Positions 3,601-61,000 of a stretch of DNA of 64,000 nt are shown in pieces; positions within the stretch are counted from its first letter, which is position 1, and every line of letters starts with the position of its first letter. The position numbers were made by a program, and so were the translations under genes. The stretch lies in NCBI GenBank assembly GCA_963829545.1, contig CAWHIX010000007.1:101807-165806 (forward strand), given 5' to 3'. The stretch is from an uncultured Actinomycetes bacterium. GTDB taxonomy: Bacteria > Actinomycetota > Thermoleophilia > RBG-16-64-13. The notes under the pieces are model-generated. The model saw nothing but the letters and a program-made list of their open reading frames with translations, searched no databases and was not told the origin of the DNA.

Positions 3601-3666
3601 GCCCGCGCGGGGGCTATCGTTCGAGCTGCGAAGTCACGATTCTTCCACGATAGCCCCCGCGCGGGC
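3601..3666 (+). repeat. Conserved-loop palindrome, copy 1
   Basis: Perfect 20-bp arms GCCCGCGCGGGGGCTATCGT (3601-3620) / ACGATAGCCCCCGCGCGGGC (3647-3666); loop TCGAGCTGCGAAGTCACGATTCTTCC. Confidence 0.92.
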
Positions 3667-3924
3667 TGGCAAGAATTCCGGTTTCGGCTGTGGCGTCCTG
3701 TGCCGCGTGGATGCGTCTGCCTGTCGAGTTGTCCCGCTGAATGGAACACGGTGCCAAAATATGCCCCGACCACTGGCGGCGTTGGCTTCAATCATGGATA
3801 ATCGCCACGATGGGATTAGCAGTACCGTATCTCTTCCCCTCTTGCAGACCCGCGTGCGACAGGCGTGTCTGGCGCCCTCCCAGGGCCGGATGTTGTCATG
3901 ATGATCTGACCAGAAAGGTGTTTG

Positions 3925-6900
3925 ATGGCTAACACCACCGCAATGATGGACGGCAATGAGGCCGTCGCCAACGTCGCGTACAAAGTCAACGGTGTCATCG
4001 CCATCTACCCCATCACTCCCTCGAGCCCCATGGCCGAGCACTGCGACGCCTGGAGTGCGCTCGGCAAGAAGAACCTCTGGGGGGTCGTCCCCAACATCGC
4101 CGAGATGCAGTCCGAGGCCGGCGCCGCTGCAGCCGTGCATGGCGCTCTGCAGGCCGGGTCGCTCTCGACCACCTTCACTGCCAGCCAGGGGCTCATGCTC
4201 ATGATCCCCAACATGTACAAGATCGCGGGCGAACTCAGCCCGACCTGCTGGCACGTGACGGCCCGCTCGCTCGCCGCCCAGGCGCTCAGCATCTATGGGG
4301 ACCATCAGGACGTCATGGCCGTGAGGCAGATCGGCTTCGCCCTCCTTGCCTCCAACTCCGTACAGGAGGCCCACGACCTGGCCCTGGTGGGCAGCGCCGC
4401 CACCCTCAAGGCGCGGGTGCCCTTCATCCACTTCTTCGATGGTTTTCGGACGTCGCACGAGGTGCAGAAGCTGGAACTCATCGGCGACGAGACCATCCGG
4501 GACATGATCGACGACAAGCTGGTGATCGCCCACCGCCTGCGGGCCATGAGCCCCGACCGCCCCACCATCCGCGGTACCAGCCAGAACCCGGACGTCTACT
4601 TCCAGGGTCGGGAGGCCGTCAACCAGTACTATCTGGCCATCCCGGGCATCGTCCAGGAATACATGGACCAGTTCGCCGCCCACACGGGCCGGCAGTATCA
4701 CCTCTTCGACTACGTGGGCGCTCCCGATGCCGAGCGGGTGATCGTCCTCATGGGCTCAGGTGCGGAGGCCGCGCACGAGACCGTCGAGCATCTGGTGGCC
4801 CGGGGCGAGAAGGTGGGGGTCGTCAAGGTGCGCCTCTACCGGCCCTTCTCCATCGAACACTTCCTGGCGGCGTTGCCTCCGACGGTCAAGCGCGTCGCCG
4901 TGCTCGACCGCACGAAGGAACCGGGTGCGGGGGGCGAGCCCCTCTACCTGGACGTGGTCGACGCCCTCTCCGACTCGGAGTTCGAGGCCAAGGTCATCGG
5001 GGGCCGGTACGGTCTCTCCAGCAAGGAGTTCACCCCGGCCATGGTCAAGGCCGTCTTCGACGAACTGGCCAAGGACAAACGCAAGAAGCACTTCACCGTG
5101 GGCATCAACGACGACGTCACCCACATGAGCCTGGAGTACGACGAGAACTTCAGCACCGAGCCGGACTCCGTGATCCGGGCCCTCTTCTACGGCCTGGGCT
5201 CCGATGGCACCGTGGGCGCCAACAAGAACTCCATCAAGATCATCGGCGAGGACACCGAGAACTACGCCCAGGGCTACTTCGTCTACGACGCCAAGAAGGC
5301 CGGGGTCATGACCGTCAGCCACTTGCGCTTCGGCCCCGAACCCATCCGCTCGTCCTACCTGGTCAACAAGGCCGACTTCATCGCCTGTCACTTCTGGGCG
5401 TTCATGGAGCGTTTCGACCTGCTCGCGGCGGCCGTGCCCGGGGCAACCTTCTTGATCAACGCTCCCTATCCCACCGACGAGGTTTGGGACAAGCTGCCCA
5501 GGGACATGCAGCAACGCATCATCGACATGAAGCTCAAGCTGTACGCCATCAACGCCTTCGAGGTGGCCAAAGAGACGGGCATGGGCGGACGAACCAACAC
5601 CATCATGCAGACCTGCTTCTTCTACCTCTCGAACATCCTCCCCCAGGACGAGGCTATCGCGGCCATCAAGAAGGCCATCGAGAAGACCTACGGCAAGCGG
5701 GGCGAGAAGGTCGTGCAGATGAACTTCAACGCCGTGGACAAGGCCATCGCCGCGCTCCATGCTATCTCCGTCCCGGCGGCGGCTACCAGCCAAATCACGA
5801 GGCCGCCGGTGGTTCCGGGCGAGGCGCCCGAGTTCGTGCGCACGATCACCGCCGCCATCATGGCCGGCCGGGGCGAGGAGCTGGCCGTCAGCGAGATCCC
5901 GGCCGACGGTGTCTGGCCCACCGACACCACCCAGTGGGAGAAGCGCAACATCGCCCTCGAGATCCCCGTGTGGGAGCCCGACCTCTGCATCCAGTGCGGC
6001 AAGTGCTCCTTCCACTGCCCGCACGCCACCATCCGCACCAAGGTCTACGGTCCGGCGCTCCTGGCCGGCGCGCCGGCGACCTTCAAGTCGGCACCGGCCA
6101 AAGGCAAGGACTACGCCGGCATGAACTGGACGGTGCAGGTGGCCCCCGAGGACTGCACCGGCTGCGGACTGTGCATCGAGGTCTGCCCAGGCAAAGACAA
6201 GAGCGACCCGAGCCGCAAGGCCATCAACATGGCCTTCCAGCCCCCGCTGCGCGAGAGCGAGCGCGACAACTTCGAGTTCTTCGAGACCATCCCCTACATC
6301 GACAGATCCCTGGTGCGGGTGAACGGCGTCAAGGGCAGCCAGCTTCTCGAACCCCTGTTCGAGTATTCGGGAGCCTGCGCCGGTTGCGGGGAGACTCCCT
6401 ACGTCAAGCTCCTCACTCAGCTCTTCGGCGACCGACTGCTCATCGGCAACGCCACGGGTTGCTCCAGCATCTACGGGGGCAACCTGCCCACCACGCCCTA
6501 CGCCAAGAATGCCGACGGACGGGGTCCCACCTGGAACAACTCCCTTTTCGAGGACGCGGCGGAGTTCAGCTATGGCCTGAGGCTCTCAGTCGACAGGCAG
6601 ACGGAGCTCGCCCAGGGGCTTGTGAACACTTTCCGAGATATCGCCGGCGATGGGCTGGTCGACGAGCTTCTTGCGGCCACGCAGATCAACGAAGCCGAGA
6701 TCGCGGCCCAGCGTGCCCGCGTCGCCGAACTCAAGAAGCGCGTAATGGCCGCCAAGGAGGCCGATCCCAGACTCACGGCGCAAGTACGACGAGATGTACG
6801 TAGCCGCCGATTTCTTGGTCAAGAAGAGCGTCTGGGGCGTCGGGGGCGACGGCTGGGCCTACGACATCGGATACGGCGGATTGGACCACGTCCTGGCATC

Positions 6901-7582
6901 CAACCGAAACATCAACCTGCTGGTCTTGAACACCCAGGTCTACTCCAACACCGGCGGCCAATGCTCCAAGGCCACCCCCATGGGAGCGGTGGCGCTCTTT
7001 GCCGCCGGCGGAAAGCTCATCGGCAAGAAAGACTTGGGCAGCATGGCCTGCACCTACGGCAACATCTACGTGGCTCAGGTGGCCATGGGCTACAACGACG
7101 CCCAGACCGTGCGCGCCTTCGTGGAGGCCGAATCCTTCGACGGACCGAGTCTGATCATCGCCTACAGCCACTGCATCAACCAGGGCATCGACATGACCAA
7201 GGGGTACGATCAGCAGAAGGCGGCCGTGGAGACAGGTTCATGGTTCTTGTGGCGCTTCGATCCGCGCCTTGCCGCGCCGGGCAAGAACCCCTGGCAGATA
7301 GACATGAAAGAGCCTTCGCGTCCGGTGACCGACTACGCCTACAGCGAGAACCGCTTCAACATTCTCAAGAAGTCCCACCCGCAGACGGCCGATATCATCA
7401 TGGCTCGGGCGCAGAACCACGTTTGGACGCGTTGGGAGATCCTCAAGCAGCGGGCGGCCATCACCTATTCTTCGGATCTGCCGTTCGAGACCGGTGTGCT
7501 TCGCGAGGAGACCACGGCCGCGGCCGGCGAGGTCACGGGGATCAAGACCGGCGTGAACATGCCGGCGGGGGGCCCCTGCTAG
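3925..7582 (+). CDS. nifJ: Pyruvate:ferredoxin (flavodoxin) oxidoreductase, copy 1; frameshift near 6780-6795
   Basis: MDGNEA, YPITPSS, two 4Fe-4S motifs (CIQCGKC..CP, CTGCGLCIEVCP), GACAGCGE, GGDGWAYDIG; C-terminus continues in ORF 6794..7582. Confidence 0.93.
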
Positions 7583-7586
7583 GAAG

Positions 7587-7652
7587 GCCCGCGATAGGGC
7601 TTCCGCTCCAGCTGCGAAGTCACGATTCTTACGCGGAAGCCCTATCGCGGGC
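7587..7652 (+). repeat. Conserved-loop palindrome, copy 2
   Basis: Perfect 20-bp arms GCCCGCGATAGGGCTTCCGC (7587-7606) / GCGGAAGCCCTATCGCGGGC (7633-7652); loop TCCAGCTGCGAAGTCACGATTCTTAC. Confidence 0.92.
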
Positions 7653-7812
7653 TGGTATGTGGGGGGCGGCGCGCTAGCGCCGCCGCGGACCTGCCTCCGT
7701 GGGGGCGTTGCCGGTGATCGCACCCTCACTACCGCGAGAAGGCGGGTGAGTGCCCGCGGAAGCATCGCGCAGGCTTTTGCGCGCAGCTGGAGCGGGTATT
7801 CACCCGCCTCTC

Positions 7813-9318
<1,506 letters not shown>

Positions 9319-16095: not shown

Positions 16096-19879
<3,784 letters not shown>

Positions 19880-19936
19880 CAGCCCGGCGATGCGCACCGG
19901 TCCAGGCGGCGCGGCACAACCCCACAAAGACATGGT

Positions 19937-20008
19937 CAGTCGGGGGTAGGGGGCCTCTCGGAAGAATCGTGACCTCGCAGCTGGAGAGAGGCCCGCTACC
20001 CCCGACTG
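19937..20008 (-). repeat. Conserved-loop palindrome, copy 3 (inverted)
   Basis: 23-bp arms CAGTCGGGGGTAGGGGGCCTCTC / GAGAGGCCCGCTACCCCCGACTG (1 mismatch); loop 19960-19985 reverse-complements to TCCAGCTGCGAGGTCACGATTCTTCC. Confidence 0.9.
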
Positions 20009-20024
20009 CTATACTTACCGCCTT

Positions 20025-20108
20025 GCTAGGGGAGCGTTCAGCTGAGAGTGTGGTCTAGGCCACAGACCCTGCGAACCTGATCTGGGTAATGCCAGCGAAG
20101 GGAAGTAA
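20025..20108 (+). ncRNA. TPP riboswitch
   Basis: GGGG..GCTGAGA...ACCC..GAACCTGATCTGGGTAATGCCAGCGAAGGGAAG; upstream of thiamine genes; TATACT -10 at 20010-20015. Confidence 0.95.
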
Positions 20109-20201
20109 CGGTTTCAACTGCATCCTCGACGAGTCCGCCCGAGTGATCACTCGACTCCGGCTCGTGCGCTCCCAGCTCCCAACCTGATCGGAGGGACACG
20201 G

Positions 20202-20840
20202 GTGCGCGCTGTGCTGGTCGCGGGATCGGATCTGAGGGGAGCACTTGATGTCTCTCTGCTGGCGACGGCCGATCTCCTGGTGGCCGTCGACGGAGGTGCC
20301 GACGCCCTGGCGGCCGTCGGCACCGTACCTCACCTCCTGGTAGGCGACCTCGACTCCATCTCGCTTGGCGCTCGCGCCCGTCTGGAGGCCCAGGGCGTGG
20401 AGGTGCTCGTCCTCCCCGTGGCCAAAGACGTCACCGACACCGAGGCTGCCCTCCGCCTGGCCGTGGAACGAGGCGCCGACGATATCGTCGTGTTCGGCGC
20501 CTTGGGAGGACCCCGTCTGGACCATCTAGTAGGCAACCTGCTCCTCCTGGCGTCGGACTGGCTGGCCGGACACCCCGTTCGCCTCATCGACGAGCGGCAC
20601 GAAGCGTTTCTGGCTGGCGGTGACGCTGGACTCACGGGACAGCGCGGGGATACCGTCTCCTTGTTGCCCCTCACCGACGAGGTCGCCGACGTGCGCACCG
20701 AGGGCCTTCTCTATCCCCTGGAGGGCGAGACTCTCTACCGATCAGCTACCAGGGGCCTCAGCAACGCCATGACCGGGAGCGAGGCCCGGGTGACACACGG
20801 CAAGGGCCAACTCCTTGTTATCCACTACCGAGGAAGGTGA
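20202..20840 (+). CDS. thiN: Thiamine pyrophosphokinase
   Basis: VAVDGGAD, GDLDSI, KDVTDTEAAL, GALGGPRLDH, GLLYPL, GLSN. Confidence 0.9.
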   Translation: MRAVLVAGSDLRGALDVSLLATADLLVAVDGGADALAAVGTVPHLLVGDLDSISLGARARLEAQGVEVLVLPVAKDVTDTEAALRLAVERGADDIVVFGALGGPRLDHLVGNLLLLASDWLAGHPVRLIDERHEAFLAGGDAGLTGQRGDTVSLLPLTDEVADVRTEGLLYPLEGETLYRSATRGLSNAMTGSEARVTHGKGQLLVIHYRGR

Positions 20841-20846
20841 CCTCTC

Positions 20847-21182
20847 ATGTCCACTGAAAGACACGGATATATGAGCGCCGAGATAGTCGGCTGCCAGTTC
20901 TCTATCTACCCACTGCGCCAGGCGGATATCGACGCTCCTGTGCAGGGCGCCATCAAAGCGGCTGCGGCCGAGGGCTGTGCTGCGCGCGTAGGGAACCTGA
21001 GCACCCTGCTCTCGGGAAGCGAGGAAGAGGTCTTCCGGGGGCTCAGGGCGGCCTTTGCGGCCGCCCGGGAGTGGGGACCGGCCGTCATGACGGCCACCTT
21101 CGCCGCCGGGATGCCCACTGACGAGCTGGTGGCCGACATCCAGACCGACGTAGACGAGGAACGCTCCGGAAGGGGTCGCTAG
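20847..21182 (+). CDS. ykoF: YkoF-like thiamine/HMP-binding protein
   Basis: CQFSIYPL...T.L.GSEEEVF..L pattern; operon context. ATG 20871 is an alternative start. Confidence 0.75.
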   Translation: MSTERHGYMSAEIVGCQFSIYPLRQADIDAPVQGAIKAAAAEGCAARVGNLSTLLSGSEEEVFRGLRAAFAAAREWGPAVMTATFAAGMPTDELVADIQTDVDEERSGRGR

Positions 21183-44858: not shown

Positions 44859-44892
44859 GGGCGGCGCCGGGAGAGAACTCCCGGCGCCGCCC
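44859..44892. terminator. Perfect 15-bp GC hairpin downstream of DUF4349 gene
   Basis: GGGCGGCGCCGGGAG-AGAA-CTCCCGGCGCCGCCC; no U-tract. Confidence 0.55.
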
Positions 44893-60689: not shown

Positions 60690-60848
60690 GCGGACTCCTT
60701 TCGGTTCAACCTATGGTCACGACCGGCAAGATGGTGGAGAGCAGGTTGGCTACTCCCCGGCCGGACCAATGCGTGGTCGAACCGAGTCGGCGCCCCGCGA
60801 CAGCGGGACGGAGTGCGCTCTCTCCACGGAGAGCGTCTGCTCCTCCTC

Positions 60849-61000
60849 TACAGCAGGTATCTGGCTCCCGTGGTCTCCGTCCGAAGGGGTGCGACCGCCC
60901 GGCGGAGCCTCGGTTACAGTGGCGGGACCGTGCCGGCTTCTCACCGGCTTCCCTCTCGGCTCCGATTTCCGGAGCCTGACTGCAGAGGCACCATGCTTGC
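60849..61000 (-). ncRNA. Cobalamin riboswitch
   Basis: Minus strand GGTGC...GAGGGAAGCCGGTGAGAAGCCGGCACGGTCCCGCCACTGT...GGGAGCCAGATACCTGC upstream of the ABC importer. Confidence 0.93.

Follow-up and report, generated by a model that had tools for sequence, protein, structure and literature searches.

A hairpin with a conserved 26-nt loop and variable arms beside the thiamine riboswitch promoter of an uncultured actinobacterium

The window analysed here is a stretch of 64,000 nucleotides from an uncultured Actinomycetes bacterium (GenBank assembly GCA_963829545.1, contig CAWHIX010000007.1, positions 101,807 to 165,806 of the forward strand). A long hairpin, here called copy 3, lies in it between the second of two PFOR genes (PFOR-2) and the promoter of a thiamine operon headed by a thiamine pyrophosphate (TPP) riboswitch. 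Copy 3 belongs to an undescribed family of hairpins that is restricted to a lineage of uncultured Thermoleophilia-like actinobacteria, and the hairpin itself is real. The members carry a nearly invariant apical loop on arms that are unrelated between loci. The reading that we favour, with a probability of about 0.45, is that these are boundary hairpins between transcription units, the loop of which would be a recognition module read on the single strand by a putative lineage-specific factor.

The arms of copy 3 are 23 nt long and 96% complementary (22 of 23 positions paired), with a gap of 26 nt between them that holds the loop GGAAGAATCGTGACCTCGCAGCTGGA. This loop recurs on the opposite strand at 3621–3646 and 7607–7632, with two mismatches each, within copies 1 and 2. 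The chance expectation for such a recurrence is 0.00, no match having been found in 100 dinucleotide-preserving shuffles. Compared with the family consensus GGAAGAATCGTGACTTCGCAGCTGGA, the only difference lies at loop position 15 (C19974). A previous description of this DNA, hereafter the original prediction, had proposed 23-bp arms with one mismatch around a 26-nt loop, this loop as the reverse complement of the consensus with one mismatch, arms unlike those of copies 1 and 2, and a start 58 nt after the PFOR-2 stop codon. The present analysis arrived at the same coordinates and at agreement with the consensus in 25 of 26 positions, found no resemblance in the arm comparison, and placed the stop codon in the correct frame at that very distance, which leaves a spacer of 57 nt (19880–19936). 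The outer ends of copy 3 read CAGTCGG and CCGACTG. An open reading frame (ORF) on the minus strand at 19367–19933 begins 3 nt from copy 3; it matches nothing in Pfam and is regarded as spurious.

A covariance model, R1, with a stem of 20 bp and a loop of 26 nt, was derived from six full copies and recovered all known copies at 81–90 bits, as well as new ones. Copy 3 shares the features of the family, i.e. a loop matching the consensus and arms of at least 19 bp that pair with each other but are unrelated between loci. One diverged copy in the window, copy 4, was absent from the original prediction. It is located 3 nt past the stop codon of an IMP dehydrogenase (IMPDH) gene on the minus strand (7813–9294), is opposed to copy 2, contains an inner GCGCGC helix and has orthologues in L120, L150 and L147. 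No fifth copy was found in the window by the model run with filters off over all 64 kb. Outside the window, R1 identified seven elements, partial and weak ones included, in the metagenome-assembled genome (MAG) CAWFJE01 (“uncultured Actinomycetes”, MFD04716.bin.1.373), a tandem array on one soil metagenome contig (L018) and a decaying copy in L146/L149. The array (L018 120–382) consists of at least three units with a period of about 102 nt downstream of rplL (L7/L12), in an intergenic position of the rplL-rpoB type, and the hairpin is complete solely in the unit adjoining the stop codon. Two tandem copies, one of them without a left arm, are found in a divergent intergenic region (L001 4378–4549), flanked on one side by a gene for a 4Fe-4S membrane protein and on the other by an IleS-like gene with a sub-threshold T-box leader (4592–4785).

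The most constant parts of the loop are its two ends, CAGCUGCG and CGAUNCUUC, whereas the middle is a small replaceable helix. Loops of a second type, type B, were found in copy 4, in L133 and in L150–L152, and in a decayed form in L147/L148. All of these, as well as a 42-nt loop in L130, have the end modules CAGCTGCG and CGATNCTTC in common, with the middle replaced by a small helix. The inner helix of type B shows a swap from G-C to A-U between the window and L150, which suggests that the loop itself is folded as a single strand. The L130 hairpin (6747–6832), located after recO, has perfect 22-bp arms around the loop ACCGCTCAGCTGCGCGATGGCGCATCGCGATACTTCGCTTGC and is probably a distant variant of the family that shares only the two end modules. 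A degenerate-pattern search for further type-B or bipartite-loop variants revealed nothing beyond the known loci.

When 185,579 species genomes, 241 million metagenome records and 2.9 million viral contigs were scanned for exact patterns, the family did not turn up elsewhere. In the scans of genome contigs with a 21-mer and a relaxed 21-mer, CAWFJE01 was the only real match and seven other stretches had no arms, while a 19-mer scan of metagenome contigs returned 36 stretches, of which L018 alone was real and 35 were coding or chance matches without arms. Viral contigs gave 0 pattern matches, and a blastN search of plasmids and phages with the 72-nt element had no match either. Among 4227 Rfam models only the TPP and cobalamin riboswitches passed the gathering threshold, and the hairpin was not among the hits at that threshold; permissive Rfam scans on the hairpins gave generic microRNA-precursor-like noise only. 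An “sbcD RNA” match over copy 2 (24.8 bits against a required 40) was rejected as noise. The proteins of the host are most similar to those of uncultured Thermoleophilia-like MAGs (AnMBR.bin488, RBG_16_64_13), and an exact look-up of the TPK (thiamine pyrophosphokinase) and RecO proteins of the window returned no record.

Loop and stem evolve in opposite ways. When nine full copies are aligned, pairing (Watson-Crick or wobble) is seen in 98.9% of the 180 stem cells, and both partners vary in 19 of 20 pairs, a level of pairing and covariation reached in 0 of 500 shuffles. The loop, on the other hand, carries only 0–2 changes per copy. The arms of the nine copies share no sequence except a pyrimidine-rich inner 5′ side, and their outer ends vary (CAGTCGG..., GCCCGCG..., GGGGCAG...).

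The same contrast is seen between orthologues. Copy 3 has orthologues in CAWFJE01 (L133 6606–6535) and in strain L153 (9657–9728), at the same site, in the same polarity and with the same junction between arm and −10 box. On the minus strand of L133 the PFOR-2 stop is followed in order by an armless type-B loop, a spacer of about 120 nt, a hairpin with perfect 23-bp arms (CAGCTGGGGGGTGGCAGCCTCCC and GGGAGGCTGCCACCCCCCAGCTG) around the loop GGAAGAGTCGTGACTTCGCAGCTGGA, a single C, TATAAT, the TPP riboswitch and the TPK gene. Between the window and L133 the left arms differ at 7 of 23 positions and the right arms at the seven complementary positions plus one base private to the window, G19995, whereas the loops differ at 2 of 26 and the adjacent spacer is unalignable over the same divergence. 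For copy 2 and its orthologue in CAWFJE01 (L120), 4 of 20 pairs have changed, all of them compensated, and the loop differs at 2 of 26. For the two copies taken together, 11 of the changes in 43 stem pairs are compensated and one is not, and only 4 of 52 loop nucleotides differ (substitution counts made by reading the alignments). The suggestion in the original prediction that arm sequence is replaceable is thus borne out. It had furthermore regarded a lack of conservation in relatives, coupled with a lack of binding or structure, as an argument for a neutral relic; copy 3 is present in both CAWFJE01 and L153, with 24–26 of 26 loop positions kept. Judged from these alignments, copy 3 is old and ancestral, and its orientation is stable between genomes.

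Strain L153 is nearly identical to the host of the window; it belongs to the same TPK cluster (at least 90%), and its sequence equals that of the window from the −10 box through the riboswitch leader into the TPK start. Its copy 3 hairpin has perfect 23-bp arms and the exact consensus loop; G19995 in the arm and C19974 in the loop are therefore private to the window assembly. These two bases may be recent mutations or long-read errors, and the latter is a possibility because both PFOR genes of the window carry frameshifts and L153 breaks PFOR-2 differently. No other stretch varies as much between the window and L153 as the spacer at 19880–19936, where there are several substitutions and indels; the next approximately 250 nt are identical. 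In two close relatives assembled from short reads (L143 and L145) the contigs start inside the TPP riboswitch, just downstream of the position of copy 3. The long hairpin may break short-read assemblies at this position.

Loss of an arm is accompanied by decay of the loop, exemplified by a relic of copy 1 in L120 that lacks the right arm and has a degraded loop, and an imperfect stem in L146 occurs together with a loop that keeps 22 of 26 positions. The element is absent from L039 and L144, which are at comparable protein distance and have kept the synteny of PFOR-2 and the thi genes; it is therefore dispensable. In the genomes compared here, loop sequence and stem perfection are retained together wherever the element is retained. 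According to the original prediction, the arms may be generated by copying one flank. L039, L144 and L141 were compared as “empty sites” to see if either arm is native flank, and those loci are so diverged that the alignments are uninterpretable, down to a misalignment of the −10 boxes.

Seven independent loci have the element 1–8 nt past a stop codon, with the UCCAGCUG...CUUCC strand as the sense strand of the gene. The genes in question are recO (copy 1, plus the L130 variant), PFOR-1 (copy 2, with orthologues in L120 and L146), the IMPDH gene (copy 4, with orthologues in L120, L150 and L147), PFOR-2 of CAWFJE01 (type B), rplL (L018) and, in L002, a CorA gene and an unnamed ORF of 634 aa. 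Furthermore, two convergent gene pairs each have two opposed copies, 87–154 nt apart (copies 2 and 4; L002 6257–6322 and 6477–6542). One element per convergent gene would not be required by a symmetric DNA site or by a simple bidirectional hairpin. The original prediction held that loop orientation relative to transcription is not fixed, and took this in favour of a function in DNA rather than in mRNA. The single polarity at the seven stop-proximal loci and the two convergent pairs speak for strand-specific reading instead, although the reversed loop of copy 3 is equally conserved and leaves some room for a role in DNA.

Copy 3 stands outside the majority class, 57 nt past the PFOR-2 stop and in the opposite polarity. 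Together with the tandem copies of L001 it makes up a second positional class, located directly upstream of promoters of leader-regulated genes and with GGAAG... on the coding strand. In CAWFJE01, L001B lies ahead of a promoter-like TTGAAG-17-TAGACT, which is followed by a T-box leader (RF00230, E 3.6e-9, a score under the gathering threshold) and the IleS-like gene. Since these promoter-upstream copies are reversed, transcripts would have the canonical polarity only if they ran leftward from the side of the promoter. Bacterial promoters are well documented to fire divergently (PMC10268837, PMC12825309).

The junction of copy 3 with the thiamine promoter is conserved. A TATACT box (20010–20015) was placed 2 nt beyond the right arm by the original prediction and was found there, and the TG that ends the arm (20007–20008) turns it into the extended −10 element TGCTATACT. 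The motif TGnTATAMT is found just ahead of the riboswitch in eight related loci (L039–L042, L133, L141, L144 and L153). None of these eight thi loci has a recognisable −35, and a promoter scan found no −35/−10 pair at the window locus. The earlier claim that the −35 region falls inside the element thus holds solely as a matter of position: copy 3 covers the positions of a would-be −35, whereas promoters of this class seem to work without a −35. The sequence past the right arm is CTATACTTACCG, and helix P1 of the riboswitch begins at about 20023. The expected transcription start is about 7 nt after the −10, right at the aptamer, and the hairpin is therefore predicted to lie outside the thi transcript. 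The first gene of the operon, thiN, is followed by YkoF-like and ECF/ABC transporter genes that resemble those of thiamine transporters. The features are listed in Table 1.

Table 1. Copies of the hairpin in the window and features surrounding copy 3
Feature	Position	Strand	Remarks
Copy 3, left arm CAGTCGGGGGTAGGGGGCCTCTC	19937..19959	+	single G.G mismatch, 19950 opposite 19995
Copy 3, conserved 26-nt loop, GGAAG... polarity on + strand	19960..19985	+	covariance model 85.9 bits, E 4e-16; 25/26 as family consensus
Copy 3, right arm; final two bases are the TG of the extended −10	19986..20008	+	junction ..CTG-C-TATAAT also in CAWFJE01 and L153
Copy 1, 20-bp perfect arms and loop	3601..3666	-	6 nt after RecO stop; UCGAG.../UCCAG polarity in recO transcript
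Copy 2, 20-bp perfect arms and loop	7587..7652	-	4 nt after true PFOR-1 stop TAG 7580–7582; orthologues L120, L146/L149
Copy 4 (type B), 18-bp arms (16/18 paired), 34-nt loop GGAAGCATCGCGCAGGCTTTTGCGCGCAGCTGGA	7740..7809	+	covariance model E 7e-5
PFOR-2 stop codon TAA	19877..19879	+	frame giving proper PFOR C-terminus
Candidate relic TCCAGGCGGCGCGG of stop-proximal type-B element, intact in CAWFJE01	19901..19914	+	weak; by eye against L133 6763–6730
Extended −10 TGCTATACT of thiamine operon (predicted)	20007..20015	+	TGnTATAMT conserved upstream of riboswitch in relatives
TPP riboswitch aptamer RF00059	20018..20120	+	67.9 bits, gathering score 54.3
Thiamine pyrophosphokinase gene thiN, first gene of operon	20202..20840	+	Pfam TPK_catalytic, TPK_B1_binding

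No U-tract follows the copies, and a terminator scan of 19000–21000 found no terminator-like site. As they lack a U-tract, the members are probably not canonical intrinsic terminators. RNA polymerase of mycobacteria requires a U-tract for termination (PMC3993855), so that “terminator” is probably the wrong word. Hairpins that define, protect or process an end seem more likely. The predicted stability of the RNA hairpins is about −48 to −57 kcal/mol, with z-scores of −5.5 to −7.6. A perfect RNA stem of 20–23 bp is a classic substrate of RNase III. Elsewhere in the window (44859–44892) there is an ordinary perfect hairpin with a 15-bp stem and a 4-nt loop, a local example of a conventional terminator-like stem-loop.

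Under the favoured reading, in which the hairpins mark boundaries between transcription units, the 26-nt apical module is conserved in sequence, and the stem of 19–23 bp beneath it would need only to pair. In most members the hairpin would define or protect the 3′ end of the mRNA, with the UCCAG...CUUCC strand in the message, and the module would be read on the single strand, either as RNA or as displaced DNA, by a putative factor specific to the lineage. Copy 3 is the only hairpin of the window between PFOR-2 and the TPP riboswitch promoter and probably insulates both units; the stop-proximal type-B partner seen in CAWFJE01 would at best be a relic here. The arms diverge at about the neutral rate and yet remain perfect, probably as the outcome of template switching from arm to arm (quasipalindrome correction) along with selection for pairing. 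Template switching between arms is a documented source of mirrored arm changes and can invert the spacer in place (PMC8794818, PMC8604942, PMC5941160). The reversed polarity of copy 3 could accordingly stem from one such spacer inversion, without any current flipping, although most published inversions of this kind are 2–8 nt long and thus much shorter than 26 nt (PMC8794818, PMC8604942, PMC5941160). The right arm was also compared with the last 19 nt of PFOR-2, and the likeness (15 of 19) was judged indistinguishable from chance in GC-rich sequence.

Several observations weigh against this reading. The sample is small, about nine independent loci in three or four genomes, and the orientation of 7 of 7 stop-proximal loci corresponds to a nominal two-sided p of about 0.016 for a rule framed post hoc. 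In its reversed polarity the loop of copy 3 is as well conserved as in the other copies, which a purely sense-RNA function does not predict unless there is leftward transcription, and no convincing minus-strand −10 was found by eye next to copy 3. In L146 one element serves two convergent genes and hence has the reverse orientation relative to one of the two. In the alignment (L001B, L002a), the three G.T pairs of otherwise perfect stems all have their G and T on the GGAAG strand and would be A.C mismatches in the sense RNA, although they are too few for interpretation. Finally, hairpins without a U-tract may fail to terminate at all.

The foremost alternative is an element acting in DNA, the loop being a protein-binding site, either as duplex or as the single-stranded tip of a hairpin or cruciform, that modulates the adjacent thi promoter in the case of copy 3. 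We consider this unlikely. It would account for the loop of copy 3 being kept at 24–26 of 26 positions in three genomes despite its reversed polarity, for the junction with the −10 box being conserved to the base, and for the similar location of the L001 copy just upstream of a promoter-like site; a cruciform would moreover present both polarities of the loop at the same time. It does not account for the single polarity at all stop-proximal loci or for the convergent pairs with two opposed copies. The distance between loop and promoter also varies, the arm of copy 3 abutting the −10 whereas that of L001B ends about 5 nt before the −35-like hexamer, and the loop has no dyad symmetry. Extrusion of a cruciform from duplex DNA is strongly disfavoured by a spacer of 26 nt.

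A bolder version of the boundary reading takes the family as a novel type of bacterial cis-element, hairpins defined by the loop and indifferent to the arms, the 26-nt module being read in a polar way by a lineage-specific factor that sets unit boundaries while template switching keeps rewriting the stems. The reverse copies would then be functional in themselves, either as polar barriers to divergent transcription from the extended −10 promoters of riboswitch and T-box operons, or as antisense partners in trans in loop-loop “kissing” contacts. This we regard as more doubtful still. If it were true, the loop of copy 3 would be perfectly complementary to many sense-copy loops, which would be the basis for such contacts.

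We give a lower probability again to a selfish or mobile loop, or a recombination site, in which the 26-mer would be recognised by a transposase or recombinase that puts it into hairpins or recombines there, leading to gene-cassette-like insertions and tandem arrays, and its conservation would reflect recent copying instead of a function for the host. The arms of copies 1 and 2 are related (14 of 20 identical, both ending ...CGCGGGC TGG), and the two copies flank PFOR-1 in direct orientation, PFOR-1 being an insertion between recO and the IMPDH gene relative to L122, L123, L125, L126, L128 and L129. Tandem partial arrays are found in L018 and L001, and the family is crisp in some genomes but decayed or absent in close relatives, as is the case for repeats that depend on a cognate enzyme. 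Against this, copies 2, 3 and 4 are orthologous and fixed in place across genomes whose proteins are 82–95% identical, and there are neither target-site duplications nor conserved outer ends. The scanned ORFs contain no transposase or integrase, viral contigs, phages and plasmids gave no matches, and each loop carries 0–1 private changes, as purifying selection predicts.

That copy 3 is a neutral relic, i.e. an ordinary terminator hairpin with an old insertion and a functionless loop, is improbable. The absence of the element from L039 and L144, where the PFOR-2/thi synteny persists at similar protein distance, fits such an explanation in that the element is dispensable there. The loop, however, has changed at 2 of 26 positions where the arms have changed at 7–8 of 23 and the spacer has become unalignable over the same divergence, and copies that lack an arm do decay. 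An active invertible switch, offered in the original prediction as a testable alternative, in which recombination at the arms would flip the 26-nt core and toggle something at the thi promoter, has the geometry of inverted repeats around a short core and the reversal of copy 3 relative to copies 1 and 2 in its favour, but is extremely improbable given the constant orientation of copy 3 in three genomes (the window, L153 and CAWFJE01), of copy 2 in three and of copy 4 in four, a core without promoter-like hexamers, the lack of a recombinase gene in the scanned flanking ORFs and a core of 26 bp, known invertases flipping segments that are far larger.

The family was also compared with known repeats and structures. 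The closest description is that of TRIT in Mycobacterium, a lineage-restricted, sequence-conserved stem-loop that recurs at gene ends within a very narrow range of distances from the stop codon, is largely palindromic and was suspected by its authors to be bound by extra cellular machinery (RNIE paper, PMC3152330). TRIT differs in that it conserves the stem and overlaps the end of the ORF (around −8), whereas the stem is free and the loop conserved here, 1–8 nt after the stop. TRIT is also restricted to Mycobacterium while the present host belongs to a different class of Actinomycetota, so that membership is implausible and the comparison is one by description (PMC3152330). REP elements, with BIME, REPIN and the associated RAYT, are likewise extragenic palindromes at 3′ ends or between convergent genes, often come as two opposed copies or as a short array, are lineage-specific and degenerate once the system is gone. 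REPs stabilise the upstream mRNA. Their identity resides in the stem (5′ GTAG), with short and variable loops, which is the reverse of the hairpin family described here; no stem is shared, the arms of the nine copies being unrelated. A gene resembling RAYT (an HUH Y1 transposase) was not seen in the ORFs that were scanned within 64 kb of the genome and scattered loci of relatives.

Integron attC sites resemble the family in having a variable sequence with a conserved structure, in lying just after an ORF in fixed orientation and in working as a folded single strand. In attC, however, the outer R″/R′ boxes and the extrahelical bases are conserved and the central loop is variable, whereas the outer ends vary here; those of copy 3 do not carry the boxes (R″ RYYYAAC, R′ GTTRRRY), and those of the other copies differ from them. 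The genes served here include the core genes recO, guaB-like and rplL, and no integrase was seen. A canonical intrinsic terminator is likewise a GC-rich hairpin immediately after a stop codon, but has a loop of 3–8 nt and a U-rich tract after the stem; the loops here are 26–34 nt long on stems of 19–23 bp, and copy 3 has neither the short loop nor the tract. An inverton is not indicated either, as a single core orientation is present in the assemblies of the window, L153 and CAWFJE01, and the ORFs scanned around the element (PFOR, MMPL, TPK, YkoF, ECF/ABC, RecO and IMPDH, part of the ORFs of the window) include no site-specific recombinase. For a miniature inverted-repeat transposable element or an insertion sequence remnant, the termini vary too much between copies and flanking direct repeats are missing. 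The template switch in a quasipalindrome (Ripley model; PMC8794818, PMC8604942, PMC5941160, PMC7202029) explains multi-base compensatory changes, perfect arms and inversion of the spacer in place, but is a mutational process rather than an element and leaves the conservation of the loop unexplained.

Some further features of the window deserve mention. The recO and IMPDH genes are adjacent and convergent, without PFOR-1, in six relatives, and five other genes occupy this interval in L150. The interval between the two hairpin-marked gene ends (window 3601–7652) looks like a hot spot for gene insertion, as far as gene order can tell. Both PFOR genes contain a frameshift (at about 6794–6830 and at 17627–17715): the frame of PFOR-1 shifts where the TPP_enzyme_C domain starts, and PFOR-2 is split into overlapping ORFs. 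An intact PFOR-1 of 1218 aa is found in L146, and L153 breaks PFOR-2 at other places than the window does. The frameshifts are probably errors of long-read assembly rather than signs of pseudogenes. A cobalamin riboswitch (RF00174, 65.4 bits) is located on the minus strand at 60835–60999.

REP and TRIT are normally recognised by a conserved stem; the family described here is the reverse, with a conserved loop and a free stem. Its stems diverge at a roughly neutral rate and stay perfectly paired, and are thereby an unusually clean natural case of what maintenance by template switching predicts. Model R1 can be used in the annotation of these genomes to mark the ends of genes and the boundaries of promoters. 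Should a dedicated factor read the loop, this group of uncultured soil actinobacteria, which lack U-tract terminators, would have a way of marking gene ends that is specific to the lineage.

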